Positions 2 to 24,871 of a stretch of DNA of 64,000 nt are shown one piece after another. Source of the DNA: an uncultured Klebsiella sp. (GTDB taxonomy: Bacteria > Chloroflexota > Chloroflexia > Chloroflexales > Roseiflexaceae); contig CAZIKU010000001.1 in assembly GCA_964539815.1 (NCBI GenBank), positions 7,554-71,553 of the forward strand. The letters are read 5' to 3'. Positions within the stretch are counted from its first letter, which is position 1, and every line of letters begins with the position of its first letter. The notes beneath the pieces are model-generated. The model was given only the letters and a program-made list of their open reading frames with translations. It was not told where the DNA came from and ran no database searches. A program made the translations under genes and the position numbers.

Positions 2-550
2 CCGATGTATTTACCTGCAGATATCCGTGCAATCGTGTGTTGTTTCCCACGAAAGTTACCTGCGTGGCTGACCGCATCACCGTGCTACAACGTGCATCCC
101 TCGCTGTTGCCAACGTTGCGTGGACCAGACCCACTCTTTTATACCGCACGAGGCGATGCACCTGCAGGTATAACAATACACCGCATGGACGGCACGTTTG
201 ACACAGGTCCGGTTGTTGTGCAACAGTCAATTGATACGCAACAGTGTGCGGATGAGCCAGCATATATTGCGTGCCATGCGCATATAGCCGCACAACTCTG
301 TAGCACTAATGACATTTTTTCACTCAGCGAAAGTCCACAGCCATCATCAGATGTCAGCTATGCCCCGATGCCACAACCCGCAGATTACACGCTCCATGCC
401 GTATGGTCGCAGCAACGCATTCGCCACTTCATTCAATGCACAAATCTGCGTAATCATGCCTACTGGGTGCCGCAAATGCGCTGTTGGGTCGGTTCTTTGT
501 CTGATGCAGTCCGTGTTGGAGTTCCGTGTGCGGATGGAATATTAACATAA
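2..550 (+). CDS. formyltransferase-family protein, C-terminal part (5' end lies outside the window)
   Basis: The ORF is open to the window edge. HPSLLPTLRGPDPL and GITIHRMDGTFDTGPVV resemble the HPSLLPxxRG and D.G.I core of Fmt/PurN/ArnA-type formyltransferases. The next gene follows 10 nt later. Confidence 0.6.
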   Translation, partial: PMYLPADIRAIVCCFPRKLPAWLTASPCYNVHPSLLPTLRGPDPLFYTARGDAPAGITIHRMDGTFDTGPVVVQQSIDTQQCADEPAYIACHAHIAAQLCSTNDIFSLSESPQPSSDVSYAPMPQPADYTLHAVWSQQRIRHFIQCTNLRNHAYWVPQMRCWVGSLSDAVRVGVPCADGILT

Positions 551-2410: not shown

Positions 2411-3388
2411 ATGTCATCCGCAGACCTGCTGTCTGAACTTCCACCGCTTGATGCACACGAAAACACGCTAATCTGTGCACTCTTTGATGCGGCACGGCGC
2501 CTTGACATACAATGCTCAATCGCTGATATTTTGCTTGCTACTGGCTGGGGGGTGTCGATTGTCGCAGCGGAGGAGTGGTGTGATCCTGCCACGACACTCT
2601 GGCATCCAATGATGGTTGACCGCGCGATACCAGCACTTGCAAAACTCCACGCAGCACAAATGGAACGACTCAGTGCAATAGGGCTGAGCTGTCGCAGTCT
2701 ATGGTTCGCACGCACCGAAAAAGATGCCCTCAGTGATTTTGTGTTGCGTCATTGTGATGCGCACCATGTGATTGTGTTATGGGGTATGCATGGACCGCGG
2801 TACGCCGTGGTACAGCACGCGACTGCAACACATGTCACATCAGGTGAACAACCGCAATCTGCTGTTGCATATGATGCCATCGATGCGCGTGGTGGCATAC
2901 ACTGTGTGGTTGTATCGCGACTTCATCCGGTACCTTCTATGCCATACTGGGAATGGCTCATTGCATCGTTGCATTTTTATCAACGAATCGAATTTGCCAC
3001 ACCAACCCATCCTATTCGTGCCACACAAACATGGCACGTTGGTGTTGGTGGGTGGGATGTGCTGTCATATGTGGCGCGACAGGCTGCGCCATTGTCGTTG
3101 GTTTCAACGCATGTCAGCAAAATCGTGCGAGACTATGCATGGCGGATAGCACATCTCAGGGAATTTTTCATGCATTTTCATGATGAAACAGTTCCTCTAC
3201 GGCAGCGAGTGCGCGTGCGTACTGCAATCGATGATTGCTGTTTTTATATCGGAATATTGTACAAACAGTATGGATTCGTGCAGCACCATGGTGCGTTGAC
3301 TACCACCGATGGTGAGTTGATTGCACAGGTGTGCAGCGATATCGCAATTACACTGCGTGATTTGACGAATTATTTAGGGGAGAAATGA
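2411..3388 (+). CDS. hypothetical protein (Cys/His/Trp-rich, no family recognised)
   Basis: 325-aa ORF starting 2 nt after the upstream stop, so it is likely co-translated with the preceding three genes. I recognise no motif with confidence. Confidence 0.6.
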   Translation: MSSADLLSELPPLDAHENTLICALFDAARRLDIQCSIADILLATGWGVSIVAAEEWCDPATTLWHPMMVDRAIPALAKLHAAQMERLSAIGLSCRSLWFARTEKDALSDFVLRHCDAHHVIVLWGMHGPRYAVVQHATATHVTSGEQPQSAVAYDAIDARGGIHCVVVSRLHPVPSMPYWEWLIASLHFYQRIEFATPTHPIRATQTWHVGVGGWDVLSYVARQAAPLSLVSTHVSKIVRDYAWRIAHLREFFMHFHDETVPLRQRVRVRTAIDDCCFYIGILYKQYGFVQHHGALTTTDGELIAQVCSDIAITLRDLTNYLGEK

Positions 3389-3389
3389 G

Positions 3390-3464
3390 TGGTGGGCCGA
3401 ACAGGATTCGAACCTGTAACCAAGTCGTTATGAGCGACGTGCTCTGCCTTTGAGCTATCGGCCC
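3390..3464 (-). tRNA. tRNA-Met (anticodon CAU); could alternatively be a lysidine-modified tRNA-Ile2
   Basis: Hand-folded cloverleaf. Acceptor GGGCCGA/TCGGCCC, T-arm ACAGG-TTCGAAT-CCTGT, anticodon loop CTCATAA, CCA encoded. The G1-C72 pair argues against an initiator tRNA. Confidence 0.85.
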
Positions 3465-3472
3465 GTATGCAT

Positions 3473-3501
3473 ATGGTAGCATGTGCATGCATTGCTGGCA
3501 A
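3473..3501 (-). promoter_or_regulatory. putative sigma70-type promoter for tRNA-Met
   Basis: On the minus strand, TTGCCA, a 17-nt spacer and TACCAT end 8 nt upstream of the tRNA 5' end. Confidence 0.4.
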
Positions 3502-3523
3502 ATACCAGAATGTTAATTGTGGA

Positions 3524-4999
3524 TCAAGAGCAGCTATTTTTGACGAGTTTACAGCGGTCAAACAAATCTATGCTGCGTTCCCAAATGCGCTGCGGCAACG
3601 ACCATTGCCATTGCCAAAGTTGTGGCCATGTCAGCCCACGGCGTAGTTGTGTCTCGTTGTTGAATAGTGTGGCATTTGCAATTAGCCCCATATTCCAGCA
3701 AATAAACAATGCAATTACTACGCCTAGTACGGTGATTGGGATGCGCGATTGTAGTTTGCTGACGAACGTGGCAAGCCCAACGATGAATATCGGTGAGCAT
3801 TCAATGTAGCGCCGGAATCCGAATGCACCACTCAGATGCCATGTGGTGCCAAATGCACCATTAATCCAGACTTGCAGGGCAAACGCAACGAGCATCGCAC
3901 CACCAATCAATGGATTGCTCCAGACAAATATCCCCAATCCAATCAATGCCACGGCTATTATCGGACTCCACACGAGTGCTCCACGACTCCACGCGGGGAC
4001 AGACACTGGCTCGATGCCAACATTACAATAGGCAGCAGGTGAGGGATCGTAGTCGATTAGCGTATCTATCGCATGAGGGCTACATAAATTGAGTTTCCCG
4101 GAGACTTCTCGGGCAGGCAGTGGTGTCCCATTGACCGCCCAATATGCAACGAATTGTGGTGTCAGTATGGCGAGAAATACCACAGCACAAATGCCGATCC
4201 GGATTACAAGTGGTTTGTATTGCGTGGTATTTGCAGTTCTCCAGAGCTGCCACAAATTGAATGCCACTGTGATTGCAGGTAATGCCAACATGAGAATGAG
4301 TTGCTCACGCACCAGGTACAACATTCCCGCCGATAGGCCGAGTAGTGCCCAGGATCGGTAGGAGCTCTGGTGTTGCTGTGTTTTCCACCATAGCCAAATG
4401 AAACAACTGGTCACAAAAAAGCCGTTGGCGTGGGCGAACGGCATTTGGATCGTCATGTAGTATACAAGTGGTGTCGCGAGCCAAATACCGATGGTTGCTA
4501 GAGTTGCCGGGAGCGCATCAAACCAGTTGCGCGTGAGTCTGCGGCAAATGAGCAATCCGACAAACGCGTAGAGCGCAGACGCATAACACACTGCTCGTTG
4601 ATATGGCCAACTATAGCCATCTGCGGGGATATGGCGCGCAATACCTACACCGTGCAAACTTTGTAGCACGACATCCGTGGCAATAAACCACGGAGCCCAC
4701 AAGATGGCTGAACCAACCGGCGCAATGTTGCCGTAGAGACCGGTTAGCGGTCGGATTCTGTTTGGTTGTAGCAGACTCCGTTCAATGCCAGATTGCGGAT
4801 TAAGCTGTGCAAATGTTTCGTATTCATTTTGGAAGTCTACGTCATGATCTTTCCAAATCGAACGAACCCATGCATAGTACTGCACTTCGTCCGTGGCGTA
4901 GACACGAGGTAACGAGCCCACCAAGCAAACGCACATGATAACGCCGAGCACGAGGTGCCCGGCGTCCTGTATATACCTGTGAGCGAAGAATTGCCGCAT
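3524..4999 (-). CDS. polytopic GT-C-fold glycosyltransferase-like membrane protein (PMT/ArnT-like, GT39/GT83-type)
   Basis: About 12 hydrophobic segments. The first extracytoplasmic loop has YATDEVQYYAWVRS, which resembles the DE-x-(Y/H)-(Y/F) loop-1 motif of PMT/ArnT enzymes. The start lies 3 nt after the stop of the upstream secreted-protein gene. Confidence 0.6.
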   Translation of the reverse strand: MRQFFAHRYIQDAGHLVLGVIMCVCLVGSLPRVYATDEVQYYAWVRSIWKDHDVDFQNEYETFAQLNPQSGIERSLLQPNRIRPLTGLYGNIAPVGSAILWAPWFIATDVVLQSLHGVGIARHIPADGYSWPYQRAVCYASALYAFVGLLICRRLTRNWFDALPATLATIGIWLATPLVYYMTIQMPFAHANGFFVTSCFIWLWWKTQQHQSSYRSWALLGLSAGMLYLVREQLILMLALPAITVAFNLWQLWRTANTTQYKPLVIRIGICAVVFLAILTPQFVAYWAVNGTPLPAREVSGKLNLCSPHAIDTLIDYDPSPAAYCNVGIEPVSVPAWSRGALVWSPIIAVALIGLGIFVWSNPLIGGAMLVAFALQVWINGAFGTTWHLSGAFGFRRYIECSPIFIVGLATFVSKLQSRIPITVLGVVIALFICWNMGLIANATLFNNETQLRRGLTWPQLWQWQWSLPQRIWERSIDLFDRCKLVKNSCS

Positions 5000-5002
5000 T
5001 GA

Positions 5003-7411
5003 TTAGCGTTGTCCAAATGCAATAGGAGCGAACGATTTGTATGTGGTCATTGTAACACTTGTGGTTGTCGAGATTGCCGTGGTGCTCGCATTCCCTGCTC
5101 CATCCAAAAAGCGAACATATGTACAGTATGTGCCACTTGCTGCTGGTGTAGACAAGCCGTTAAGCAAGTTCCAAGACACACTCGGTGAAGATGGGTCAAT
5201 CGGTACTGCTCCCCAGCGTAAATCAGTAGAAGTATCTGCTGGGCAGCTGCCACTCTGCACGGCATTTGCGACCCAAATACCCCAGTACGGCTTGGAAGCA
5301 GTCGAATTATAGATGGTATCCGAGACACTTCCACCACTCAACGACAACGTACCTGTAAATGCACCACTAGATGCAGGAGTAAATGACAGTGATGGAGGTG
5401 TTGTTACACTAGGCGGTTCAACGTCCATAATGAGTGACCGCATTCCGCGTGTTTCACTATTAAGGGCACCGTCTGTCAACGTCAGCGAAATACCTACAGT
5501 ACTAGTGATTGCGTTCAATCCTACAGGGATGCTCTGATTGAGCATTGATGGTAGATACGTCACTCTGTTCCCGTTGACCTCAAATGTATTGAGCCCAGAA
5601 GGATCAGTGACGCCAGTGATTTTGAGAATGCCAGTCGATGAACGTGTGTGGCCTGAATCGGTATACGATGAACCACGCATACTGTAGGTGTCGAGATAGT
5701 ATGGTGTTGTGCTGGTGTTCGATAGTGTTGCGGTTGCCCCAACGGTCGCCACCGTGTCAACAGTAATACTTGCTGTCATCCATGAATCAACAGGGCGAAG
5801 CGAATCATCCAACAGCCGTACATGGATGTAGTTGAGCGCGTTTGCTGTGAGCCCAGTAACCCCAATTGTGCCATGCGCAACCGAGAAGGGCGCCACTTTG
5901 GTGTTATCAATTGTCGCTGGAGGAGTTGCACTGTTCGATGCAACCGCATAATACTTTGTGGCTGGACATGTTAGTCGCGTGTATATGGCGCCACCAATCG
6001 ATGTGTTGTTTACGAACGATGCACCAGATTCAAGTACCAAATTCGAGCGACATTTTGTTAATTGTCCCTTGAGCGGTGTTCCATAGGATGCGATATATGT
6101 GCCGTGAATCGAACTATTTCCTTCAAGGACATACACTGCAATAAGTCGTGTTTGGCCATTTACGTCCGCTAATGCAAGACTTGGACTACCAAAATGCGCA
6201 GGTGCCGTAGAAGGAAGGAATTTTTCGGACCACGTACTGTTGTAGTACAGAGCGACCTTGCCAAATCCACCACTCCCTGGAACTCCCGATGGAAGCTTGT
6301 ATGTGATACCAATACCGAATGCAATATTACCGTCTTCATCTACATACATGCTTGTGCCACCAAAGAGGTTTTCGAGGTTGATGAATGGTGAGAGTAAGGT
6401 TGGCATCGGACCATTGAGTCCACTCCACTGTTTGGTGGTCATATCGTAGCGCCATACCATGGTGGCACGTGATGAACCGCCCCGTTGGACAGAAAGTAAT
6501 GTGAGATATAAATTTCCATCTTCGCCTACGACTGCATGTGGTGTTTGGCACCCGTAGAGCGGTGATACACTTCCTGGGCCATTACACGGTATGTAACCCA
6601 CGCCGTTCTGAGTGATATTCAATGGGTTTTTCTCGACTTGTGCGACTGGGTCATAAAAGACCGCCCAAAGGCTCCCTTCGCTCTGATCTCCCATCACAAA
6701 GAACATGCCATTGGGTAGACCAACAATCGCGTCGTAGTTCTTGCCGACTTTCGAGCCGAAATTTCGCCAACTTGCAGTAATTGAAGCCATTGTTTTGACA
6801 GTTTCGATTGATAATACTGCATATGCAGGCACAATTGCTTCGCCACCGTTAAATGACGATACTGCGATTGCAATATGGTTTGTTGTTACCGCCAGTGATG
6901 TAAATGTGTGAAACATTTTCCCTGTATTTGTTGCAATCTTGCGTTTAAGCATCCCTTGGAACGGGCTGCTTGCAGGGGCGTCGTTGGGAATCATCAGCAA
7001 TCGGTAGTAGCCTGCCGAGCCTTTGCCGACAAATATATTCCCAGTTGCATCTGCCACCGCAAGTGCAGGGTTGTATTTAACGGTAAATGCAGTGTAGTTG
7101 TCTTCTATTGCGTCTTGATAGACTGCCACCACAGGACAAACGCCTTCACCGATACTGTTCGGGTCAACCACAATGATCGACGTGTATGCTTTGTTCACCA
7201 TGTCGGTATATGACGACACGGAACGTGTGATATACAGAAGTCCGTTGTTGTGGAGTACTACGGATCCACCCCACGTGATGAGGCCGTTATTCAAGCGACA
7301 GTTGGAGGCGCGAAGCAAATCATTGGCTGCAGCGGCGGGTTTTGGTTGACTCACGAACGTCGCTACTACCACGGCGAACAGACATATAAATCGTAATATT
7401 CGTTGATGCAT
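5003..7411 (-). CDS. secreted Ser/Thr/Asn-rich protein (putative beta-propeller N-terminal half, Ig-like/beta-sandwich C-terminal half); function unknown
   Basis: Signal peptide MHQRILRFICLFAVVVATFVSQPKPAAAA. Recurrent D-x-(D/T/N)-G-(N/Q) blade-like motifs: ADATGNIFV, GEDGNLYL, DEDGNIAF, ADVNGQTRL. The C-terminal 300 aa is very S/T/N-rich. GGAGG Shine-Dalgarno. Confidence 0.75.
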   Translation of the reverse strand: MHQRILRFICLFAVVVATFVSQPKPAAAANDLLRASNCRLNNGLITWGGSVVLHNNGLLYITRSVSSYTDMVNKAYTSIIVVDPNSIGEGVCPVVAVYQDAIEDNYTAFTVKYNPALAVADATGNIFVGKGSAGYYRLLMIPNDAPASSPFQGMLKRKIATNTGKMFHTFTSLAVTTNHIAIAVSSFNGGEAIVPAYAVLSIETVKTMASITASWRNFGSKVGKNYDAIVGLPNGMFFVMGDQSEGSLWAVFYDPVAQVEKNPLNITQNGVGYIPCNGPGSVSPLYGCQTPHAVVGEDGNLYLTLLSVQRGGSSRATMVWRYDMTTKQWSGLNGPMPTLLSPFINLENLFGGTSMYVDEDGNIAFGIGITYKLPSGVPGSGGFGKVALYYNSTWSEKFLPSTAPAHFGSPSLALADVNGQTRLIAVYVLEGNSSIHGTYIASYGTPLKGQLTKCRSNLVLESGASFVNNTSIGGAIYTRLTCPATKYYAVASNSATPPATIDNTKVAPFSVAHGTIGVTGLTANALNYIHVRLLDDSLRPVDSWMTASITVDTVATVGATATLSNTSTTPYYLDTYSMRGSSYTDSGHTRSSTGILKITGVTDPSGLNTFEVNGNRVTYLPSMLNQSIPVGLNAITSTVGISLTLTDGALNSETRGMRSLIMDVEPPSVTTPPSLSFTPASSGAFTGTLSLSGGSVSDTIYNSTASKPYWGIWVANAVQSGSCPADTSTDLRWGAVPIDPSSPSVSWNLLNGLSTPAASGTYCTYVRFLDGAGNASTTAISTTTSVTMTTYKSFAPIAFGQR

Positions 7412-7532
7412 AATTTCCTCGCTTATCCCTCCATTTCATCATACTCTAGGGAAGTATGTGAATTAAATAGCTCTTTATGAGCGCTATCTGATGTCTATCT
7501 GATATCTGTGACGATAAACACATGCATATTGT

Positions 7533-8321
7533 TCACACTGGCGGTCGTTGGAATATAGCCAGAAGCATTGAACGACTGCTCGGAATGACTTTCGTCACAA
7601 TAGAAATTAGTGCTTTAGCTACCCAACGATGAGGTGCCTGGAAGAGTCGTTTGGTTTCGAGACCGACTGGTTCATAGGCCGCGATAAACTCCTTGCTAGT
7701 GACTGTGTAGCCACATTGTGCGCTTAGCCATTCTAGTTGCGCCATACTGAATAGTCGACTATGCGTGTAATAACGGGCATCATGCCGTAGCAATGCCCAG
7801 CGTTGGAATTCTGCGTCGTGATCAAATGGTCGCATCAGCACCACATCAAAGAGTGTGCGTAAACGACTTTTGAAGTAAAACTGGTTGGGCGTACTTATGC
7901 ATAGATATCCACCAGGAGCGAGCAAACGATAGAAGGTTTCCAGTGCTTCAAGTGGTGGATTCGCCAAGTGTTCGATGACTTCCGAGAATACGATAATATC
8001 GAAGCTACCATCTGCATATGGAGGTGCTTCGATGTCAATATTCCATCTGCGTACTTCTACTCCGAGACGTTGCCAGACCTCGGTGCGATGTTCTGGGAAT
8101 AAGTCAGTCCCCGACACTGAAAAGCCAGCGTGGACGAGCATTTCGGTGAATTGTCCTGGATTCACGCCGATTTCCAAGACGCGTTTGCCAGGGAGCGCTA
8201 TAATCGCTGCCAACATTGCGGTAAAACGGAAGCGGTGATAGCGATAGTATTCACTTTTGTGTTCAGGTGTGTTATTCGGATACGCACGGACAATATCTGC
8301 TGCACGTTGATAATTCGACAT
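7533..8321 (-). CDS. class I SAM-dependent methyltransferase
   Basis: VLEIGVNPG motif I and FDIIVFSEVIEHL motif. I chose the start at 8321 (GGAG 5 nt upstream, 8 nt after the upstream stop) rather than the ORF-track start at 8354. Confidence 0.8.
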   Translation of the reverse strand: MSNYQRAADIVRAYPNNTPEHKSEYYRYHRFRFTAMLAAIIALPGKRVLEIGVNPGQFTEMLVHAGFSVSGTDLFPEHRTEVWQRLGVEVRRWNIDIEAPPYADGSFDIIVFSEVIEHLANPPLEALETFYRLLAPGGYLCISTPNQFYFKSRLRTLFDVVLMRPFDHDAEFQRWALLRHDARYYTHSRLFSMAQLEWLSAQCGYTVTSKEFIAAYEPVGLETKRLFQAPHRWVAKALISIVTKVIPSSRSMLLAIFQRPPV

Positions 8322-8329
8322 ACCCGCTC

Positions 8330-9559
8330 CTATAATTCCAGTGCGCGACGACAAATCGCCACCAATTCTGACGCACGATTACGATAGGTATGTGGTGCCA
8401 CGGCCTGTAACCCTGCAGTTGCATATGATTGACATAAATCTGGGTTATTCAACAAATTCGTGAGCTGTTTTGTCAACGACGATTCGTCCCCACGCACGAA
8501 TGTGCATGCGCCATTCTCACCAATGATCTCGCGTAATGCGGGCATGTCAGGACATATCACTACACGTCCGGTGGCGAGATATTCGAATAATTTGAGTGGT
8601 GATGCGGTTTCATCAGTCACGGTATCTGGTATCGCCAAAATAGTGCTGGCTCGGAGATACTCCGCTACCGTGGTTTGTGGGACAACCCCGACAAATGTGA
8701 CCAAGTCTGTGATATTGAGTGACGCTACTAATTGACGTAACTCCAGGACTTCTTGTGTTCGGCCACCAATAAAAATGAGACGCGTGTGCTGGCGCACCTG
8801 AGGCGCAAGTCGTGCGAATGCTCGTACCAATAGATCTAGTCGACGATAAGCAAATGTCAACCCTGCATAGGTAATGACATTGATGTCTGATGCAATGCCC
8901 AACGCTTGGCGTGATTCATTCATGTTGCCTGGTGTGTAGAGTGCATCATTATATGCATCAGGCAGGATATCAACGTGCTGCGAATCTCGTAACGTTTCGC
9001 GAGCGAGCAGTGTACGAAACGCCTGCGTCAACGATACGAGCCGTTTGGGCTTGGATATTGTGATGTCATCGATGCGACGCACCAACGATTGTGCCCATGA
9101 TTCCTTTGGTCGAGAGTGATTTGTATGCTCTAAATGATGGACTTCGTAGACTACTTGTGCACCGCACCATCGTGTCGCATACAAAGAAAACCAGTACGCA
9201 CATATAACTTCACGCACATAGATGACATCGATTCGTGCGCCACGCCATTTACGCCAGCGCATTATCCACAGCACTAACCAAGCGAAGACGCTACGCTCTA
9301 GGTAATACCACAACGTCGATTTATATAGCCGCGATAAACGACCAATGCCAATACGTGGCAAGTAGTTGACACCTAATTCATCGAATGGATTGGCTTCACG
9401 TGTCATGCGTGGGATGAAAATTTGCGTGTCTGGGGCAATCGCTTTGAGTTCTCGCAATGTGGAATACGTTTGTACCGCATTCGCAGAGGCTAACGTCAAG
9501 CTAGTGGGATATGCAATGTAATAAATTGTCGGTGATTGTGAATGCTTGTCTATTTGCAT
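8330..9559 (-). CDS. glycosyltransferase, GT4/GT-B fold (group 1)
   Basis: C-terminal GT-B half with TASPLKLFEYLATGRVVICPD. 409 aa. Overlaps the upstream GT gene by 10 nt. Confidence 0.75.
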   Translation of the reverse strand: MQIDKHSQSPTIYYIAYPTSLTLASANAVQTYSTLRELKAIAPDTQIFIPRMTREANPFDELGVNYLPRIGIGRLSRLYKSTLWYYLERSVFAWLVLWIMRWRKWRGARIDVIYVREVICAYWFSLYATRWCGAQVVYEVHHLEHTNHSRPKESWAQSLVRRIDDITISKPKRLVSLTQAFRTLLARETLRDSQHVDILPDAYNDALYTPGNMNESRQALGIASDINVITYAGLTFAYRRLDLLVRAFARLAPQVRQHTRLIFIGGRTQEVLELRQLVASLNITDLVTFVGVVPQTTVAEYLRASTILAIPDTVTDETASPLKLFEYLATGRVVICPDMPALREIIGENGACTFVRGDESSLTKQLTNLLNNPDLCQSYATAGLQAVAPHTYRNRASELVAICRRALEL

Positions 9560-10779
9560 AAACCATGTTCCCGATACGTAGCTAAGAGATCATCAGCGAT
9601 TTTGCTGGCACGAAAGTCTTCGGCAAATGCTGGGCAACGTGCTTGTAATGTGCTGTAGCGAGCGAGTGCCCGTGTGATACCTGCTGCAAGCGACGCGGCA
9701 TCTTGCGGCTCGACCACTTCACCACAATCTGCGTCTTTGACGTAATCGCTCGCACCGGTGGTGCGCGTGACAACGGGAGGAGTGCCGACTGCGGTGGCTT
9801 CGATTACCACACGACTGAATGATTCTGCCACAGAAGGGATTACCGCTATATCACACCCCGCCATGTATTCTGCAGCTTGATGGTGCGCTACCCCGCCAAT
9901 TTGATGGACACGATCTGCCACACCGAGTGCCACCGCACGCTGTTGCAAGTACGCACCATAATCGCCGAACTTTGCAGTGCTCCGATTGCCACCCACAATG
10001 ACAGCATGCGCATCAATTCCTTGTGCGATGAGCGACGGTAATGCTTCGACGAGGTATTCTATGCCTTTGAACGGATGCAGCCGATTGAGGCTGAGTATCA
10101 ATGTTGCTTGTGGATTCCACCCATGACGTGCACAGATTTGGGCACGTGACGTGTGGCGAAACGAATCACTATCGACGCCATGTGGTGGGTATGTTGGTTC
10201 TGTAATGTTGTAGGGGATTGCGACGACATTACTCGGTGGTGCGTTATATGTTGCGACGACAAGTGTGGCTATCTGACGTGAATCTGCGCGTACAAGATTG
10301 GCATGACTAACAACCCAACGAACCGCTTGGCGTACAAACCAATTGCGTGCATACCCATAATCAAAGGCAGGAACGGCCATCACATCAGCACCGGGTAATG
10401 TGACAGCCACAGGTGTGTGATCGTTTCGCGCAAGCATGACAATAAGTCCGAGTGGAAATGAGGTTTCGATATGAATCAAGTCATAATGCTGGCGTGTCAA
10501 TAATACACGAAAGCCTTGCCATGCACCAAACAAATACGGATAACCCGTCAACCAGCCTAGTACACGGTTGGCTAATTTATCGAACAATGTGCTCGAGGTT
10601 GGAATATGCTGTACTGTGATGTCGTCCATGACGAACGTGCTGATTTGATGCTCGCGTGACGAGAGTGACGCAACGTGTGTCTCATGTCCTTGTGCATTCC
10701 AATGTGCAATCACTTCGGTGTGCATCAGGTTTCCCACGGCATCTTTGTCGTATCGTGGGATGCAATACAGAATCCGCAT
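9550..10779 (-). CDS. glycosyltransferase, GT4 family
   Basis: PSVAESFSRVVIEATAVGTPPVV (E-x7-E motif). The MRILYCIPRY N-terminus is typical of GT4. Confidence 0.85.
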   Translation of the reverse strand: MRILYCIPRYDKDAVGNLMHTEVIAHWNAQGHETHVASLSSREHQISTFVMDDITVQHIPTSSTLFDKLANRVLGWLTGYPYLFGAWQGFRVLLTRQHYDLIHIETSFPLGLIVMLARNDHTPVAVTLPGADVMAVPAFDYGYARNWFVRQAVRWVVSHANLVRADSRQIATLVVATYNAPPSNVVAIPYNITEPTYPPHGVDSDSFRHTSRAQICARHGWNPQATLILSLNRLHPFKGIEYLVEALPSLIAQGIDAHAVIVGGNRSTAKFGDYGAYLQQRAVALGVADRVHQIGGVAHHQAAEYMAGCDIAVIPSVAESFSRVVIEATAVGTPPVVTRTTGASDYVKDADCGEVVEPQDAASLAAGITRALARYSTLQARCPAFAEDFRASKIADDLLATYREHGLCK

Positions 10780-10822
10780 GAGTTATCCCTTAGTACTATT
10801 GATTGTAGTATATCATGGATTT

Positions 10823-12025
10823 TTAGTTTGTAAACGTATCGATGTAGTGTTGATAATACGAAAGCGTCTGATTGGCGACGATTTGTGGCGTATAGTGTGT
10901 GTTGACATGTGCCAATCCATTGATCTGTAGCGACATACGCAGTGTTGTATCATGCAGCACACGCAACACTGACGCAGCGTAGCCTGCCACATCGTCGTAT
11001 GCCACGAGCAATCCATTTACTTCATGCGATACCATCTCGTTGCCTGCGGCACAATCTGTGGTTACCACAGGACATTGCGCGGCCATGGCTTCGATGGGTG
11101 GGATCCCGAACCCCTCATAGCGACTTGGCGCAAGTAGGACGTGCGCTTCTTGGAGGAGTTGTACTTTGTGCGCTTCGTCTACTTTGGTTAGTACCTGCAC
11201 ATGTGCTTCCACTCCTAGTTCGTTTGCGAGCGCATGTAAATCCGATAATTGACTGGTATTGTGTGTAACCATGACAAGTTGTACATCTGGTTCTTGTGCA
11301 ACTATTGCGGGAAGTGCACGGATTGCCAAATCCCACCCTTTGCGCGGGACAAGCTGCCCAATGTACAGTACCATCGGGTGCTGACGCCGACTCCGCGGTG
11401 GAGCATCAATATACTGGTCGAACTCTACCGCATTTGGTACCACATGAATATTATCGGAACGGATACCGAGATCAACAAGAACACCTTTCTCGTGTTTTGA
11501 CAACGCCAGGATGCCATCGTAGCCGAGTAGTGGTGCATGGATGAGGTAGTTACGTACGCTGCGACGGGGATGTGCACGTTGCCGCAACACATTCCATAAT
11601 TGCCGAGTATTCAAGAGCAATTTTTCAGGAGTAAGCGGGTGTTCAAGCGGACGTTCGCGATCTACCACCAAATCACCGTCGTGGAGCATGCCATGAGGGG
11701 TGAGAATCATCGGTGCAACATCTCGCCATAATCGTTGTGCTTGGTATGCCAGCAAATGACGTAAATGATGTACGTGGATAATATCTGGGCGCGGTAGGGT
11801 ACGTGCAAGTCGCCACAAGTCATACGAGAAAAATCCGAACGTGCGACAACGATAGATAGTCAAATTTGTGGCAAATTGTTGTACTGATGGCATAGCTTGA
11901 TTATGCGCATACTCGATTGCACTTACGGTGTGTCCCATCCGTGCAAGTGTACGTGCAAGCACGAATTCTGGGCGACTGGGGTAGTGTGGATCGAATCCAA
12001 ATGTGGAAATCAGTACGATGTGCAT
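10823..12025 (-). CDS. glycosyltransferase, GT4 family
   Basis: PSRYEGFGIPPIEAMAAQCPVV (E-x7-E). I chose the start at the MHIVLIS ATG (12025), 1 nt after the upstream stop, instead of the ORF-track start at 12091. Confidence 0.85.
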   Translation of the reverse strand: MHIVLISTFGFDPHYPSRPEFVLARTLARMGHTVSAIEYAHNQAMPSVQQFATNLTIYRCRTFGFFSYDLWRLARTLPRPDIIHVHHLRHLLAYQAQRLWRDVAPMILTPHGMLHDGDLVVDRERPLEHPLTPEKLLLNTRQLWNVLRQRAHPRRSVRNYLIHAPLLGYDGILALSKHEKGVLVDLGIRSDNIHVVPNAVEFDQYIDAPPRSRRQHPMVLYIGQLVPRKGWDLAIRALPAIVAQEPDVQLVMVTHNTSQLSDLHALANELGVEAHVQVLTKVDEAHKVQLLQEAHVLLAPSRYEGFGIPPIEAMAAQCPVVTTDCAAGNEMVSHEVNGLLVAYDDVAGYAASVLRVLHDTTLRMSLQINGLAHVNTHYTPQIVANQTLSYYQHYIDTFTN

Positions 12026-12026
12026 C

Positions 12027-13130
12027 TTACCCTCGCGAACGAATGTTGTTGTACGTGGTTTCAACTCTATCTGTGACAGCATCCCAGGCAAATTGTTTGG
12101 CCCATATAGGTGCAGCTAGTGCCATGGCTGCTCGGAGCGTCGGATTTTGATAGAGTGTGTTGATTTGTGCAGCCAATTCATCGGGGCGTTGTGGTGTGAA
12201 AAAGAGCCCGGTTTGACCTTCTGCAACTACTTCTACAAAGCCACCAAACCGGGAAGCAATCACAGGTATGCCAGATGCTTGTGCTTCTACGAGTCCAATA
12301 CCGAACGTTTCGCTGGCATAACTGGTAGCAACAAGTGCGTGAAATTGTGCAAACAGCGTGGCAATTTCATGGCGTGGGCGTGAACCTAGGAATGTGACGC
12401 GTTGCCGAATACCAAGTGTATCAACTAATGCCTCGAGCGCTGCTCGATGGACACCATCACCAGCAATTGTCAACGTGGCATCAGGCACGAGTGCAATAGC
12501 GCGGATCGCAGTGTCGACACCTTTCCATGGCTGTAGTCGACCAACAAACAAAAGCTTAAATGGAGTATTGGGCAAATGAACAGGCGATACCGGTACGCTG
12601 AACAGCGATGTGTCAATGCCGTTGTAAACTACATCAATCGTAATAGGGTAGCGCTGTTTGACGGTATCTGCATTGAATTGACTGCAACTCACTGCACCAT
12701 CGACATGTGTCGCGAGCCACGTATCCCCCCGATAAAAATCCTCGCCGTGACATCCGAGGATGACTTTTGCTCCTGAAAGACGGGCTGCAATGAGTGCAGG
12801 GAGTAAATCGTATGGTTTTTGGATATGAATAATGTCGAATCGCTGGCGAATTAAATACCAAATGGCAAAAATAGCCATGCTGAGACGTTCGAGGAGTTTA
12901 CGTTCGGCATAGGCCCGGCGTAGTCCGGGGATCCACGCGAATGCGTCTCGATCGATATAGGGGAATGTCTTGACTTTGACATCTGTACTGTTTTCACGCA
13001 CAGACCCATTCCCGCCGACAACGGTGACATGATGGCCACGGGCAGCCAGATGATTGGCCAAATCCCACACAAAACTTTCGACTCCACCATATTTCGTTGT
13101 GTTGGTCAGATTGTATAATGCGATTCGCAT
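12027..13130 (-). CDS. glycosyltransferase, GT4 family
   Basis: TSYASETFGIGLVEAQASGIPVI (E-x7-E) and an N-terminal GGVESFV motif. ATGA overlap with the upstream flippase gene. Confidence 0.85.
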   Translation of the reverse strand: MRIALYNLTNTTKYGGVESFVWDLANHLAARGHHVTVVGGNGSVRENSTDVKVKTFPYIDRDAFAWIPGLRRAYAERKLLERLSMAIFAIWYLIRQRFDIIHIQKPYDLLPALIAARLSGAKVILGCHGEDFYRGDTWLATHVDGAVSCSQFNADTVKQRYPITIDVVYNGIDTSLFSVPVSPVHLPNTPFKLLFVGRLQPWKGVDTAIRAIALVPDATLTIAGDGVHRAALEALVDTLGIRQRVTFLGSRPRHEIATLFAQFHALVATSYASETFGIGLVEAQASGIPVIASRFGGFVEVVAEGQTGLFFTPQRPDELAAQINTLYQNPTLRAAMALAAPIWAKQFAWDAVTDRVETTYNNIRSRG

Positions 13131-14779
13131 CAGAGCACCCGCATCAAATATGCTTTGAATGGTAGTTTGAGTTTGAAGAGTTGGTCGCGATCACTCGTGT
13201 CGAGTCCACCACAAAGGCGTAACACGATGATGAATCCGATCAGACTGGCCATGCCAACAAGCGCATACCCCGGGATAAGCTGGAGCCGTGCGAGGATATC
13301 CATTGACACATTGGGGGTATTGATAACGGTATTACAAAGGTAAATGATGATACCCATCGCTGTAGTGGCCAATAGGACGCGTGCACTGAACTGCCACGGC
13401 CAGCTGAGATTGAGTTTGCGCCATCCCCAGAAGGTGACCCAGATTCCTGCGAGCACGCGTGCCGAGCCATAGGCGAGTGCTAGACCGGTCACGCCATACC
13501 AGTCTCCGAGCCACATGCCCAGCGGAATGACGATGAGTGTGAGCAGGCGACCAATGGTCACGATGGTCAGTTTTTCGTACACAATCATCACATTATGCGC
13601 AACGGTCAATAGACTCTCGAGAAATAAACAGGGCACGAGCACATATACCAGTGATACCGCGTCTGCGTACTGCGGTGTCAGAATTATTAGTGCTGGCTTG
13701 GCCAGAAGCATCAAGGCGACGCCGCCAGGGACGAGCAAGAGCAACTGGAGTCGCACAATAGAGGCAAACGCACCTTGAATGGTGCCCCCTTCGCCTGCAC
13801 GCACCCGGGTGAACAATGGGACGGTGACACCGACGAGTGGGGTGTAGAGATACGATAGCACCATGCCTACCAGCGATGCGCCAGCCCAGAGTATCGCTGC
13901 GTCACTTATACTACTCGTCAAATATATCGCAAACGATTTGCCAGCAACAAAATCCGTCATTGTCATCAAATACGATACACCCGTGTATTTGAGAAATCCC
14001 GTAGGAATCCACTGGGTGGATGTCGTCATTGCGGTGACAGTTGGCGTGTGACTCTCGCGCCATATGCTGATGACTTGCCATGTCGCCACGGCTACAGCCA
14101 ATGTGGGGGCAAGCGCTGAGGCAATCAGGATCCCAACAATACTCCAGCGCAGTGGTTCGTGCGTATAGTGTGCAACTAAAATAGCGATAACTGCCAGTAA
14201 TTGCGGTAACAATCCGGCGAGGAGCGTGATGCCATTCCATGCGCGCTGTTTAAAAAAACTGTTCAAATAGGCCATTAATACGTCATAACAGACACCCATG
14301 GTGAGCATGACGATGATGACAGTAATGAAAACCCACCCTTGCTGCTGCAAGAGGGCATGTAACAGCGTTTGCGCCGCAGCGTCGATACGCGTATCTGCAC
14401 TGATTCGGTCGCCGAGTGACCGTAGGTAGGATTGCTGTTGCACGGCCAAGCCAACGGCAATACCCAGTAATATAACTGCTTGAGCGATGAACACTGCGCC
14501 GATTAGGCGAATAACAGCTGAAGGGCCCCGCTGTTGCATCGTTTCTGGGATAAACTTGGGGAGTGCTCGGGTAGTACCCAAATCAATCCATGTACCAAAC
14601 GCAGACGCCGCACCACTTACCAGTGCCAGCATGCCATACGCCGCAATTGGCAATACCGTGAGCTTTAAGGCGGTGGCAGCTATTTCGGCCAGCATGCGCA
14701 ACGGTACAAAAAATGTATTCCATACCACAGCGCGTGATACTTGATGTGATAAAGTTGCTGGTTTGGGCGTTTCTGACAT
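13130..14779 (-). CDS. Wzx-like oligosaccharide/polysaccharide flippase (MOP superfamily)
   Basis: 549 aa with about 14 hydrophobic segments, embedded among GT genes. ATGA overlaps at both ends. Confidence 0.6.
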   Translation of the reverse strand: MSETPKPATLSHQVSRAVVWNTFFVPLRMLAEIAATALKLTVLPIAAYGMLALVSGAASAFGTWIDLGTTRALPKFIPETMQQRGPSAVIRLIGAVFIAQAVILLGIAVGLAVQQQSYLRSLGDRISADTRIDAAAQTLLHALLQQQGWVFITVIIVMLTMGVCYDVLMAYLNSFFKQRAWNGITLLAGLLPQLLAVIAILVAHYTHEPLRWSIVGILIASALAPTLAVAVATWQVISIWRESHTPTVTAMTTSTQWIPTGFLKYTGVSYLMTMTDFVAGKSFAIYLTSSISDAAILWAGASLVGMVLSYLYTPLVGVTVPLFTRVRAGEGGTIQGAFASIVRLQLLLLVPGGVALMLLAKPALIILTPQYADAVSLVYVLVPCLFLESLLTVAHNVMIVYEKLTIVTIGRLLTLIVIPLGMWLGDWYGVTGLALAYGSARVLAGIWVTFWGWRKLNLSWPWQFSARVLLATTAMGIIIYLCNTVINTPNVSMDILARLQLIPGYALVGMASLIGFIIVLRLCGGLDTSDRDQLFKLKLPFKAYLMRVL

Positions 14780-15642
14780 CAGGAATCTTTCGTGAGTGCA
14801 AGCTCGAACATGCCCACGTACCAGGCTCGTTGCACTTTGTAGGCAACATATTCCAGGCCAAGTGCGCGAAGGAGCGCACGAATTCGTTGTCGACTGCTCC
14901 TTTTGCTGACGAAGTGTCCGCTTTGCAGTGCGACTTCGTTCATATCGACAGTTGTGTACCCAGTCTGCTTGGCAAGTGCCACAAATTCTGGGTAGTCAAA
15001 GTAGTGCATGGTGCTGAGGCGTTGCATGTCGTTGAAGCGTGCGTTTTCTTTGCTGCGCCCACGGCGTGCAATATACCATTCTGCCAGAGCACGTGGCCAC
15101 CAGTTGATGCTCGGGATGTGATAATGCGGATCTATCCAGGCACGCCGATTGATAGCCGTCAGGAGCACGTGTCCACGTGGTTTCAGGACACGATGAATTT
15201 CACGCAGAACCTGTGTAGGATGTTGTACGTGTTCAAGGACATCCCAACAGACGACTGCATCAAATTGTGCGTCTGCAAAAGGTAAATTCTCACCTGCGGC
15301 ATTCACAATGGGAAGTGAGAGTTGATAGCGATCTGCACGCAGTTGAATGATTTCGCAGTACGGCATATTAAATTCAGAGACGAACACATGTGCCCCGTGC
15401 AATGCACTCGCTACGGCGAAGCCTCCCATGCCGGCACCAAGGTCGAGGATGCGCAACCCGCGTATCGACCCAACAAATTGTTCGATTTGTGCGATGCGTT
15501 CTGCTTGATAGCGTTCCTGGTAGAGACGGCGCTCACGCCATGTGGCATAGTCGCGGCGCCATGTCATATGTGCCAACCAAGGGTCGATGGCATCTGCTAA
15601 GGCATCGATCGAGTGTACAGCGGCTTGATCGAAATTATTCAT
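14779..15642 (-). CDS. class I SAM-dependent methyltransferase
   Basis: ILDLGAGMGGF motif I and FDAVVCWDVLEHV motif. 4-nt overlap with the upstream gene. Confidence 0.85.
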   Translation of the reverse strand: MNNFDQAAVHSIDALADAIDPWLAHMTWRRDYATWRERRLYQERYQAERIAQIEQFVGSIRGLRILDLGAGMGGFAVASALHGAHVFVSEFNMPYCEIIQLRADRYQLSLPIVNAAGENLPFADAQFDAVVCWDVLEHVQHPTQVLREIHRVLKPRGHVLLTAINRRAWIDPHYHIPSINWWPRALAEWYIARRGRSKENARFNDMQRLSTMHYFDYPEFVALAKQTGYTTVDMNEVALQSGHFVSKRSSRQRIRALLRALGLEYVAYKVQRAWYVGMFELALTKDS

Positions 15643-17984
15643 GGGATCACCAGTGGCGCGCGGTCAATGCGAATAATCCACAAATAGATTGCACTTGTAA
15701 GTGTATAGAGCATTGTAATTGTCACGAGGAGCTGACCACTCCAGCCACGCCGCCACCATTGACTTGCCACAATACCCCAGCAGACCATCATGGCCGGCAT
15801 CATATAAAAGATTTGCTTGTCAACCATCGGGAATCGATATCCTGCAAGCATGAACAATACCGACACACTAAACCACGCAGCAGCAAATGCCCAGAGAATT
15901 GGTTTTTTGGCTAGTAGCACAAACCCTGGGATGACGGTTATTATTGGGATGAAAATCCCGTAGTATAAATAGGGATTCAGCACGAAGTCGTAGCGTAGTG
16001 TGGTCACGAAATTCCACATATACACGGCAAAAGATTGCTGTGCCTCAGCAGTCGCGCCTGTATGCTCACTGTTCGGCTTGAGCAAATACGGAATGGTTCG
16101 TTCGATGATTGGTCCGATGTACTGCCCGTAGTAAATCAGTGTCGCAAGTGCGAGACCACCGTATACGACGAGTAGCATATACTTCACTTGGGCACGCAGT
16201 GGGTGATTGGGCATCAACCAGATGATGAGCACAAGGATAGTGACAAAGACGACGTGAAAGACCGCAGTGACGGTATAGATGAGCATTGAGACGATGTGCA
16301 GCCCAATCAGAATGCTGAACACCTTGCGATTGGGGAGTTTGTGCCCCCATGCCAACAATACCATGCTGGTCACGAGCGTCCACCACAATCCTGTGGTTGT
16401 CGGCGTATTGCCCCACGCATGCAGCAAGAACGTAACAGGAGTTACTGCATAGAGGAGTGCAGCGAGCAATGAAACTCGTTGAGTTAACCCACCGATGCGT
16501 GCAATGATTGCAATGAGCAATACACGTGACGCATCACCGATTGCATTGATAATCGTTGCGGATTTTTCGAGTGGCCATGGAAAAATGGCGAAAAGTAGCG
16601 CACTGAAGTGATAAAACGGAGAATAGGGAATCATTGGTCTGTTTTCGCCCCATTCCGTGATGGGCATCACCGATTCCGAAAATGCACCAGGGAGATAGAA
16701 TTTGGCGAAATCACCTGTTGATAGCATCTCACGCACCTTGTTCATGTGCCACTCAATGTCTATGGGGCGCATGATGGGATAGAGAATGCCACCACCTTTG
16801 AGCCAGATGCTGACAACAAAAAGTGCGATGAGTAGATTACGCATCTCTGGACTAAAGCTGAATATCTCATCACCCCACACAAATATGCGATAGCACAAGG
16901 GAATGAGCAATACGCTAACAGCAACTAATACTAGTAATTGTGGATACCACATTGCGAGATAGGCACGTTCCATACCCATTGCCATAATCAGCATTGTCGC
17001 GAACGTGATGCCTACACCGAGCATGGATAGCGACATCAAGTGTGCAGCTACAGCAATCAGGACAATAATGGCAATGACACTCGCTAACTGCCACGAAAGT
17101 GCGATGTCCCACCATGGTGTTGAAATAGGGGAAATGTGCATCGATGCCACGGCGATACCGAGTGTGCGTACGTCTTTGGCATTGCCACCCCATGTTGGGC
17201 TCTGCAGGTTGACGACCACATCGCCACGTTCGTGACCATCAGGTGGAATCAACATGTGATAGACACGAAATCCGGTTTGGGTGCTAGGAATCGTGCTAAT
17301 GAGCGCCTCATTTACCTGTACTTGTGCGGTAAATGGCTGATTATCGGGGTGTTGCACCAACATAGTGCTTTGTAAGTGCCACCATCCACCACCACTCCCA
17401 TAGAAATTAACCTTACCGTCGCCTTTGCTCCAGCGATACACGTTGGCATTGCTCAGCGATACGCGTGTGACCGTCAATGGGGGCGGAGTGAGTTTGTCAT
17501 CTGGGATCGTGGTGATACGGATAACCGACCCAGCATTCAATGTGATGGTGGTTGGAATGATGAATCCGAAATCTTGGAAACGACCGGTGTCTTTGGTGTC
17601 GAGAACACGCTTGTTATCAATAAAGACGGCGAGTAGTCGACGTGTGTACGCACTCGGTAATTCGTCGATAGTGAAGGTGATGGTGCGATATTTGGCTAAA
17701 TCTGGCGAATCTGGCACCGTGATGCGCCATTCGGCAGCATTGTACGGTACTGCCTCGACGTTGCGCGTTGGTTCGATAACGGCGTATTCACGGCTATGAA
17801 ATTCATCGAGCTTGAGGACCGTGCGTGGATACAAAAAATTAATCGTTTGACTGAGTCGCATGCTACTCAGAATGCCAAACAACAGACAACTGTATACGAT
17901 AATGATTCCGAGATGTCGAATCTGTATTTGTCGCAACCCGTTCATGGCCAACCCTTCAACGACTGTTACCTTGCCATTATACAC
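15639..17984 (-). CDS. large membrane protein: N-terminal anchor, about 270-aa ectodomain and polytopic core; GT-C-like (possible polyprenyl-phosphate-sugar-dependent transferase or polymerase)
   Basis: 781 aa. Hydrophobic anchor at about residues 25-45, then a beta-rich soluble region, then more than 10 TM segments. Loop motifs DIEWH...IPYSPFYH resemble the D...Y/YxP loops of GT-C families such as GT87. An alternative start at 17945 has better Shine-Dalgarno context. Confidence 0.5.
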   Translation of the reverse strand: MYNGKVTVVEGLAMNGLRQIQIRHLGIIIVYSCLLFGILSSMRLSQTINFLYPRTVLKLDEFHSREYAVIEPTRNVEAVPYNAAEWRITVPDSPDLAKYRTITFTIDELPSAYTRRLLAVFIDNKRVLDTKDTGRFQDFGFIIPTTITLNAGSVIRITTIPDDKLTPPPLTVTRVSLSNANVYRWSKGDGKVNFYGSGGGWWHLQSTMLVQHPDNQPFTAQVQVNEALISTIPSTQTGFRVYHMLIPPDGHERGDVVVNLQSPTWGGNAKDVRTLGIAVASMHISPISTPWWDIALSWQLASVIAIIVLIAVAAHLMSLSMLGVGITFATMLIMAMGMERAYLAMWYPQLLVLVAVSVLLIPLCYRIFVWGDEIFSFSPEMRNLLIALFVVSIWLKGGGILYPIMRPIDIEWHMNKVREMLSTGDFAKFYLPGAFSESVMPITEWGENRPMIPYSPFYHFSALLFAIFPWPLEKSATIINAIGDASRVLLIAIIARIGGLTQRVSLLAALLYAVTPVTFLLHAWGNTPTTTGLWWTLVTSMVLLAWGHKLPNRKVFSILIGLHIVSMLIYTVTAVFHVVFVTILVLIIWLMPNHPLRAQVKYMLLVVYGGLALATLIYYGQYIGPIIERTIPYLLKPNSEHTGATAEAQQSFAVYMWNFVTTLRYDFVLNPYLYYGIFIPIITVIPGFVLLAKKPILWAFAAAWFSVSVLFMLAGYRFPMVDKQIFYMMPAMMVCWGIVASQWWRRGWSGQLLVTITMLYTLTSAIYLWIIRIDRAPLVIP

Positions 17985-21558: not shown

Positions 21559-21560
21559 AC

Positions 21561-24836: not shown

Positions 24837-24871
24837 TTGTACATGTCGATTGACACATGTAAGGTTTGTAC

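Follow-up and report, generated by a model that had tools for sequence, protein, structure and literature searches.

A compact GT-C glycosyltransferase and a secreted propeller/Ig-like protein encoded side by side across Chloroflexia: a candidate surface glycoprotein with its own glycan-assembly cluster

Here we report the analysis of two adjoining minus-strand genes in a 64,000-nucleotide (nt) stretch of contig CAZIKU010000001.1 (assembly GCA_964539815.1, positions 7,554 to 71,553), referred to below as the window, from an uncultured member of the Roseiflexaceae (Chloroflexota, class Chloroflexia). The upstream gene encodes an 802-amino-acid (aa) secreted protein predicted to consist of a beta-propeller and immunoglobulin (Ig)-like domains, and the downstream gene a 491-aa polytopic protein with the predicted fold of the type C glycosyltransferases (GT-C). 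The linkage of these two genes is the strongest result of this study: the pair is syntenic across the class. An earlier note, made from the letters of the window, had proposed that the two form a dedicated glycosylation target and its transferase. We tentatively favour a wider reading, in which a surface glycoprotein is encoded with its own glycan-assembly and transfer machinery and the GT-C enzyme modifies the neighbouring protein. The features of the pair are as follows.

5003..7411, minus strand: gene of the 802-aa secreted protein (P0001), stop codon 5003-5005 included
7328..7411, minus strand: signal peptide, aa 1-28 of the 802-aa protein (sequence and model)
6062..7327, minus strand: beta-propeller, aa about 29-450 of the 802-aa protein (strand pattern, Foldseek)
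5042..6061, minus strand: three Ig-like beta-sandwich domains, aa about 451-790 of the 802-aa protein (model, alignment, composition)
5006..5041, minus strand: conserved C-terminal tail, aa 791-802, ..YKSFAPIAFGQR (modelled at low confidence and without structure)
5000..5002, minus strand: 3-nt spacer separating the 802-aa gene (stop codon) from the GT-C gene (ATG) (sequence)
3524..4999, minus strand: gene of the 491-aa compact GT-C (P0002; AlphaFold2 (AF2), Foldseek, structural re-alignment)
4886..4891, minus strand: Asp37-Glu38 codons (TDEVQYY), candidate catalytic pair in loop 1 (alignment, model)

Linkage within the family was tallied by hand over 61 genomes, with single-sequence and profile searches combined. 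Single-sequence searches recovered the GT-C gene in 60 of these genomes and the secreted-protein gene in 48, and the two lay on one contig, within 2.8 kb of each other, in 47 of the 61: at most 500 nt apart in 40 and 1.5-2.8 kb apart in 7. Larger gaps, as in G022, G025 and G036, hold a glycosyltransferase family 4 gene (GT4a) and a methyltransferase gene between the two. Within the genus the genes are at most 500 nt apart in 24 of 25 genomes, the exception being a 60% complete genome (G056) without a GT-C match. A class-wide sample of 251 Chloroflexia genomes, whose totals include six flagged as unpublished, gave matches to the GT-C profile in 150 at E<=1e-30 and to the secreted-protein profile in 181 at E<=1e-5, many of the weaker of which may be generic propeller or Ig domains. 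Outside the family, adjacency was scored in the 65 genomes with both genes among the matches listed, families f7, f10, f13, f14 and f16 being left out. In this set the genes were at most 1.6 kb apart in 41 genomes, 2.2-2.7 kb apart in 10 (all of family f3), 4.7-5.5 kb apart in 7 (one genus of f2) and on different contigs in 7, which places them within 5.5 kb of each other in 58/65. Linkage in other genomes, a GT-C fold and the loop-1 Asp, on each of which the earlier proposal depended, were all found.

The coordinates of the two open reading frames (ORFs) and their junction are as first described. Both genes lie on the minus strand, and the junction reads ...CAA CGC TAA tca ATG.... Between stop and start codon lie 2-17 nt at 21 of the 23 genus loci and 42 nt at one further locus, with one unresolved; loci of other genera have 18-70 nt here, frequently containing an inverted repeat. 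Roseiflexus-type loci (L046 10722-10778, L047 and L028) have a 50-56-nt spacer with a GC-rich inverted repeat, ggagcgttgagga...tcctcaacgctcc, which, judged from its sequence, may form an attenuating hairpin that sets a high:low expression ratio. The stop codon and the ATG are in frame in the window. At 15 of the 23 genus loci the pair is in one frame and at 7 in different frames, with 1 unresolved; open frames of about 1300 aa were obtained for G041, G052 and G055. Stop-codon read-through or fusion of the pair was considered and rejected, a real TAG being present between the genes in the DNA. A scan of 3300-7700 for promoters and terminators returned 6 and 4 sites against 6.0 and 3.9 expected and is uninformative.

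The motif DEVQYY, which the earlier note had placed in the first loop of the 491-aa protein, is indeed found there, at residues 37-42, directly after the first hydrophobic helix. The AF2 model is a helical bundle (pLDDT 85.1, pTM 0.89) whose first transmembrane (TM) helix, 13-27, is followed by loop helices at 36-51 and 57-66. A Foldseek search of the PDB with this model returned GT-C enzymes for all 40 of the best 40 matches, among them AglB, STT3, ArnT, ALG12, AftA/B, PglB, Pmt4, DPY19, PimE, ALG9/3, Emb and AftD. After structural re-alignment the best match was ArnT (5f15; Z 22.9, root-mean-square deviation 4.0, 343 residues aligned), with ALG12 at Z 22.7, yeast STT3 at 21.7, Pmt4 at 19.7, Pmt1-Pmt2 at 19.2 and PglB at 17.5; over about 50 GT-C entries Z ran from 22.9 to 11, and the top about 35 exceed the noise level of helical bundles (about 13). 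On this predicted structure, the 491-aa protein has a GT-C fold and belongs to the GT-C superfamily.

Relatives of the 491-aa protein number 340 at E<=1e-3 among the scored candidates, the named ones all from Chloroflexota or Roseiflexaceae, and a few carry PF13231 together with the annotation "glycosyltransferase family 39". Across 38 aligned members (A1; 43-80% identity to the query) the loop-1 residues R32, D37, E38, Y41, D51 and D53 are invariant in 38/38, as are many later positions, and D37 would superpose on the catalytic Asp of ArnT or PglB (alignment ranges 7..446 and 26..457). PMT_2 (PF13231) is matched by 22 of the 38 relatives at E<=1 (best 4.8e-7) and the NCBIfam ArnT model (PRK13279) weakly by 10 (best 4.4e-5), all of these matches lying far below the curated cut-offs, and the query itself matches neither; the sequence comparison argues for a distant relationship to ArnT/PMT_2, not for membership. 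PMT (PF02366), MIR and PMT_4TMC are matched by no member of the alignment at E<=1, and the longest outer loop of the model (about 291-345) is too short for a MIR domain. We rejected a family 39 (GT39) protein O-mannosyltransferase (PMT) identity on the absence of all three domains. An STT3/AglB/PglB identity was rejected as well: there is no STT3 Pfam match and no WWD/WWDYG motif, and the protein ends after its last helices, with no soluble domain. Without the WWDYG motif or a domain of the PMT, MIR or STT3 kind, the 491-aa protein stands outside GT39 and STT3; it is a compact GT-C with an Asp-Glu loop-1 motif that is distantly ArnT/PMT_2-like. Its earlier description as a PMT/ArnT-like GT-C is therefore kept in part: the fold and the weak PMT_2 and ArnT matches of its relatives support it, and the missing PMT and MIR domains remove the GT39 component.

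The 802-aa protein begins with a clear signal peptide, as had been recognised from its sequence: read from the translation, the N-terminus MHQRILRFICLFAVVVATFVSQPKPAAAAN runs from a basic n-region through a hydrophobic core to an A-x-A site (AAA-A), and in the AF2 model it forms a helix at 2-20 followed by a low-confidence linker at 21-28 (pLDDT<50). The model (pLDDT 84.8, pTM 0.60) is otherwise all-beta, with about 6-7 four-stranded blades at residues 33-444. The claim of at least four blade repeats is borne out by this propeller and by four exact D-x-x-G-(N/Q) copies, ADATGN (121-125), GEDGN (296-300), DEDGN (358-362) and DVNGQ (416-420), beside degenerate copies at 55-57 and 233-235. The Ig-like part is folded in the model (pLDDT about 85-95) rather than being a disordered linker, and has a Ser+Thr content of about 23-32% across its domains. 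Foldseek related the whole model to propeller-plus-Ig ectodomains, namely integrin alpha, BT4673, the M. viridifaciens sialidase and the archaeal YVTN+PKD surface protein 1l0q, and its propeller to PLL/PHL lectins (TMt 0.62-0.63).

Neither the 802-aa nor the 491-aa protein matched a Pfam or NCBIfam model at E<=0.01, and PDB sequence searches with both proteins, the GT-C profile and the polytopic protein P0003 of the neighbouring cluster yielded nothing meaningful. A Pfam scan of the 802-aa protein at E<=10 gave no SLH, sortase or other match except a sub-threshold Kelch, and neither LPXTG nor a C-terminal TM segment is visible, so that the reported lack of an anchoring motif stands. The conserved tail had gone unremarked: it reads FAPIAFGQR here and ..LPxxxR/K in other family members, with P796 invariant or nearly so across the secreted family. 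A role of the tail as a general sorting signal was rejected, as P-x4-QR ends only 2 of 4753 ORFs of at least 120 aa, one of them the 802-aa protein itself; a relaxed pattern matches 14 ORFs of the genome, which do not resemble each other.

The C-terminal part had been called extremely rich in Ser/Thr and in sequons. Enrichment is confirmed: Ser+Thr reaches 29.7% over residues 500-802, 30.9% over 556-665 and 32.1% over 666-802, against a mean of 12.3% (standard deviation 3.3) in 1310 long ORFs of the same genome, and the 10 N-x-S/T sequons of the protein amount to 1.25 per 100 aa, where the mean is 0.35. "Extremely" overstates the case, as the protein ranks 40th of the 1310 for Ser+Thr and 29th for sequon density.

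A word-indexed search found 8 close relatives of the 802-aa protein. Exhaustive searching at E<=1e-3 yielded 71 cluster representatives, which are mostly 740-830 aa long and align for the most part over the C-terminal 230-350 residues. A profile of 39 sequences (A4) extends the secreted family, at full length, into other families of the order, and the 835-aa GT-C neighbour of Roseiflexus type is a full-length homologue (hhalign 100%, E 2.6e-57, 698 columns). Nearly all invariant or near-invariant positions fall in the Ig-like part, where they are D552, T589-R590, D647, D663, P667, D698, W710-G711, W713, A715 and L769-N774, the last being the family-invariant LDGAGN (769-774). Weak BNR_2/BNR_4 matches occur in 3 of 6 distant members scanned and weak Big_13 matches in relatives; the 802-aa protein itself has no BNR match and no conserved catalytic residues in its propeller of the kind seen in BNR/sialidase-type enzymes. 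Since W215, P291 and W329 are the only near-invariant residues kept there, the propeller is unlikely to be an enzyme, as far as sequence conservation can tell.

The two families evolve differently. Within the genus the identity of the GT-C stays at 56-72%, whereas that of the secreted protein drops to about 28-35%, and genomes carry 1-5 (once 6) matches to the secreted family beside a mostly single-copy GT-C. A fast, multi-copy secreted family next to a conserved GT-C is the pattern of variable substrates served by one enzyme.

Contigs from four freshwater metatranscriptome runs of three studies, mostly at least 99% alike, together cover most of the 802-aa gene (run X1: 5025-7489, apart from two gaps; run X2: 5030-7468). 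These contigs record presence in RNA libraries and carry neither an expression level nor a ranking between genes; the GT-C, methyltransferase and GT4a genes have little or no contig cover in runs X1-X4. The contig ends near 7489/7468 and 5025/5030 are at most a weak hint of transcript ends. The occurrence of near-identical contigs in freshwater libraries of three studies suggests that the source organism belongs to the freshwater plankton within this family; its genome is small (2.7 Mb, 84% complete).

The earlier note had treated the two genes as a stand-alone pair. They form instead the end of a minus-strand gene row consisting of an ABC exporter, P0005, P0004, a methyltransferase, P0003, four GT4 genes, a second methyltransferase and the pair; from the first-named methyltransferase onwards this row is a conserved cluster. 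The members of the row upstream of the pair are listed below.

7533..8354, minus strand: S-adenosylmethionine-dependent methyltransferase, 273 aa (Methyltransf_23 at 5e-25)
8330-9559, 9550-10779, 10823-12091 and 12027-13130, minus strand: four GT4 (GT-B) genes (Glycos_transf_1, 5.6e-19 to 1.8e-39)
13130..14779, minus strand: P0003, 549-aa polytopic protein, syntenic with the cluster
14779..15642, minus strand: a further methyltransferase, 287 aa, marking the upstream end of the conserved block (Methyltransf_11 at 1.9e-20)
15639-17984, minus strand: P0004, 781-aa polytopic protein of no Pfam/NCBIfam family
17997-19790, minus strand: P0005, 597-aa polytopic protein of no Pfam/NCBIfam family
19813-21714, minus strand: ABC exporter, heading the row

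In all 10 genus loci fetched the order is Wzx-like gene, GT4d, GT4c, GT4b, GT4a, methyltransferase, secreted protein, GT-C. The four GT4 genes are in the same order in 10/10 of these loci and partly so in other genera, the 273-aa methyltransferase is syntenic both within the genus and in other genera, and the 287-aa methyltransferase is present in those fetched genus loci that reach that far. Other genera keep parts of this order, and the secreted-protein gene may there sit between GT4b and GT4a. At one locus (L043, G036:C6, about 5800-15400) three tandem secreted-protein paralogues, in frames of 755-789 aa, lie between GT4a and GT4b. P0003 has no Pfam or NCBIfam match; its look-alikes in a language-model search score 0.99, with 222-226 of 256 features shared, and fall in clusters in which 89-99% of members carry PF01943 (Polysacc_synt), a lead by which P0003 is probably a Wzx/MOP-type oligosaccharide flippase.

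P0004 and P0005 are distant paralogues of each other (BLASTP E 6e-5, 467 residues), each with an N-terminal extracytoplasmic domain, and their look-alikes are hypothetical proteins of Chloroflexota and Acidobacteriota; in one cluster, 21% give a weak DUF6311 lead. The two might act in the same pathway, as additional membrane glycosyltransferases or polymerases; a relationship to the GT-C as its paralogues is not supported (hhalign probabilities of 0.3% and 0.1%). The ORF of the ABC exporter, opened at a GTG at 21714, overlaps an upstream CDP-alcohol phosphatidyltransferase-like ORF by 154 nt (21561-21714), and the true start is probably further downstream. On the other side of the pair, convergent on the GT-C gene, P0006 (2411-3388, plus strand, 325 aa, no family) keeps its place in 10/10 fetched genus loci at 25-42% identity. 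A second row of envelope-related genes (24866-32104, plus strand) comprises those for an M14 carboxypeptidase-like product, a product of 602 aa that weakly matches polysaccharide deacetylase, a Wzm/Wzt-like pair of ABC-2 permease and ATPase, and a product of 425 aa without a family. The window also holds ordinary sugar-use genes for a GH32 fructosidase, a galactose-1-phosphate uridylyltransferase and a GH78 alpha-L-rhamnosidase (34334-35719, 44186-45229 and 56693-59410).

The synteny of the secreted protein, the GT-C, the cytoplasmic GT4s with methyltransferases and the Wzx-like flippase, which extends across the class and resists rearrangement, points to these four being parts of one system. 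In the mechanism we propose, the four cytoplasmic GT4 enzymes and the methyltransferase(s) would build a short, partly methylated oligosaccharide on a polyprenyl-phosphate carrier, and the Wzx-like 549-aa protein would flip it to the membrane's outer face. The GT-C, by means of Asp37-Glu38, would then move sugar from the lipid carrier, either en bloc or as single residues, onto the secreted propeller/Ig protein as this emerges from the Sec channel, leaving the latter as an exposed, fast-evolving surface component. We infer that the donor is lipid-linked, that P0003 acts as the flippase, that the acceptor is the protein encoded next door and not a glycan, and which residues would be modified; the 802-aa protein and its homologues are, on this analysis, candidates for glycosylation.

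Several observations weigh against such a transfer onto the protein. The Ser/Thr-rich part consists of folded Ig-like domains (pLDDT about 85-95), while bacterial O-mannosylation is typically found on disordered Ser/Thr/Pro linkers, and a high Ser/Thr content is in any case common in beta-rich extracellular proteins. Invariant Ser/Thr is limited to T589, in a YTR motif that looks structural, and the N774-x-S sequon falls in the common D-x-A-G-N motif of Ig domains. The GT-C, present in 150 of the 251 Chloroflexia genomes, is conserved like a housekeeping envelope enzyme, which a role in wall-glycan synthesis would fit equally well, and it lacks the soluble acceptor-binding domain of STT3, PglB or PMT. 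Domain scans of the conserved block identified neither a priming phosphoglycosyltransferase nor a family 2 (GT2) polyprenyl-phosphate sugar synthase. In addition, the neighbour of the GT-C is a propeller-only protein in at least two lineages, in G054 (441 aa; L035 8367-9692) and in G177 (461-aa frame; G177:C2:518722-519867), in both cases without the Ig-like Ser/Thr-rich part and without the C-terminal tail. Since these propeller-only neighbours keep the linkage, the Ser/Thr-rich Ig-like part is not needed for the link with the GT-C and cannot be its sole basis. Family f8 has matches to the propeller part alone, in proteins of 905-965 aa. A complex prediction of the GT-C (A1) with residues 556-802 of the secreted protein (A4) gave a score of 0.01 and a mark of 0.32, which speaks neither for nor against binding.

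A more specific form of the proposal, which we consider unlikely, is that the GT-C is a minimal bacterial oligosaccharyltransferase of a new kind, without a soluble domain, that transfers a Wzx-flipped methylated oligosaccharide en bloc onto neighbouring folded propeller/Ig proteins. It would add a polyprenyl-diphosphate carrier, make the system a class-wide counterpart of the archaeal Agl pathway, and have the variable secreted paralogues form a glycosylated outer coat on monoderm-like filaments.

The alternative that survives best, possible but doubtful in our judgement, is that the cluster makes a glycopolymer, bound to the cell wall or secreted, to which the GT-C adds or ligates sugar, and that the propeller/Ig protein binds or organises this glycan, with a lectin-like propeller on an Ig-like stalk, in the manner of S-layer and wall proteins encoded beside the genes of their anchoring polymers. 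Most bacterial GT-C enzymes with the closest folds (ArnT, AftA/B/D, Emb) act on lipids or glycans, and a near-universal, mostly single-copy gene in many Chloroflexia families is what envelope biogenesis would lead one to expect. The resemblance of the propeller to lectin and sialidase-type propellers, the weak BNR matches of its relatives and the linkage kept by the propeller-only forms are in keeping with it too. A peptidoglycan-bound polysaccharide with O-methyl sugars, reported for Chloroflexus walls in the literature of the 1980s, would fit the two methyltransferases. However, a glycan-binding site should leave conserved propeller residues, and only W215, P291 and W329 are nearly invariant; the conserved block shows no LCP-type ligase or polymerase; and gaps of 2-17 nt, with the protein gene amid the glycosyltransferase genes, are more typical of clusters that combine a target with its machinery.

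It is improbable, in our estimate, that the secreted protein is instead a trans-acting extracytoplasmic subunit of the GT-C that supplies an acceptor-binding domain, with the conserved tail as docking element. Larger GT-C enzymes do carry such a domain in cis (MIR in PMT, carbohydrate-binding modules in Emb/AftD, the C-terminal domain of STT3), the present one has just 491 aa and no soluble domain, the pair is tightly coupled and co-inherited across the class, and the tail, with its invariant P796, is conserved across the family and specific to it within this genome. Yet the secreted family evolves much faster than the GT-C, 2-5 secreted copies stand beside one GT-C, tail-less propeller-only forms still adjoin it, and the secreted protein, with its cleavable signal peptide, lacks an anchor in the membrane. 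Finally, operons often mix functions, but synteny across at least five families of the class despite rearranged gene order inside the cluster makes it very improbable that two unrelated envelope genes merely share an operon.

Among known systems, the PMT/POMT enzymes of GT39 resemble the 491-aa protein in their GT-C fold (Z 19.7 for Pmt4, 19.2 for Pmt1-Pmt2) and in the Asp-Glu of loop 1, but the 491-aa protein lacks PMT (PF02366), MIR and PMT_4TMC; moreover, a PMT needs only a dolichyl- or polyprenyl-phosphate-mannose synthase, not a cluster of four GT4 enzymes and a flippase. ArnT and PMT_2 (PF13231), lipid-to-lipid GT-C enzymes, offer the best fold match, the acidic loop-1 residues and the weak matches of the relatives; in contrast, there is no lipid A in this context, and the 491-aa protein matches neither model. 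AglB, STT3 and PglB match in fold (Z 17-21.7), and AglB and PglB differ in having a C-terminal periplasmic domain and the WWDYG motif. In archaeal Agl, bacterial Pgl and S-layer glycan (slg) clusters, several cytoplasmic glycosyltransferases occur with a methyltransferase, a flippase and a GT-C, and with a surface protein as the target; the make-up of the present cluster parallels that of the Agl and slg clusters.

The closest precedent for the gene arrangement is TfpW of Pseudomonas aeruginosa, described in a preprint as a GT-C arabinosyltransferase/oligosaccharyltransferase encoded next to its group IV pilin substrate (bioRxiv 10.1101/2020.04.19.049825). As here, a polytopic GT-C is encoded immediately downstream of a secreted protein, and the donor of TfpW is lipid-linked (bioRxiv 10.1101/2020.04.19.049825). 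The two systems differ in that the secreted protein of the window is an 802-aa propeller/Ig protein and not a pilin, TfpW was not among the matches seen and bears no sequence relation to the GT-C, the cluster adds four GT4s, methyltransferases and a Wzx-like flippase, and the present system is known from computation alone. A parallel for Ser/Thr-rich Ig-like domains as targets is provided by TMTC and TMEM260, which modify folded cadherin and IPT Ig-like domains (PMC11292533). By cryo-electron tomography, Roseiflexus castenholzii and Chloroflexus aggregans have no S-layer (PMC7332563); since R. castenholzii has a homologous pair, the secreted protein is unlikely to be an S-layer protein of the classical type, in Roseiflexus at least.

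The arrangement described here places a GT-C, together with the protein presumed to be its target, in a glycan cluster of Wzx type. Literature searches, whose coverage left out most subscription journals, turned up no account of the pair or of either protein family, nor any of a glycoprotein from Chloroflexia. To our knowledge, the Chloroflexia envelope is poorly understood: it lacks lipopolysaccharide, its layers are debated, and almost nothing is known of its surface proteins. The pair offers a concrete class-wide target in this respect, as it joins an uncharacterised GT-C family to an uncharacterised secreted family in a conserved glycan cluster. If the acceptor is a wall glycan, the pair would mark the missing extracytoplasmic step of Chloroflexia wall-polysaccharide synthesis. 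If the acceptor is the protein, the system would represent a third bacterial architecture of protein glycosylation from lipid-linked donors, beside the PglB/PglL-type oligosaccharyltransferases and PMT, with an enzyme small enough to attract glycoengineering.

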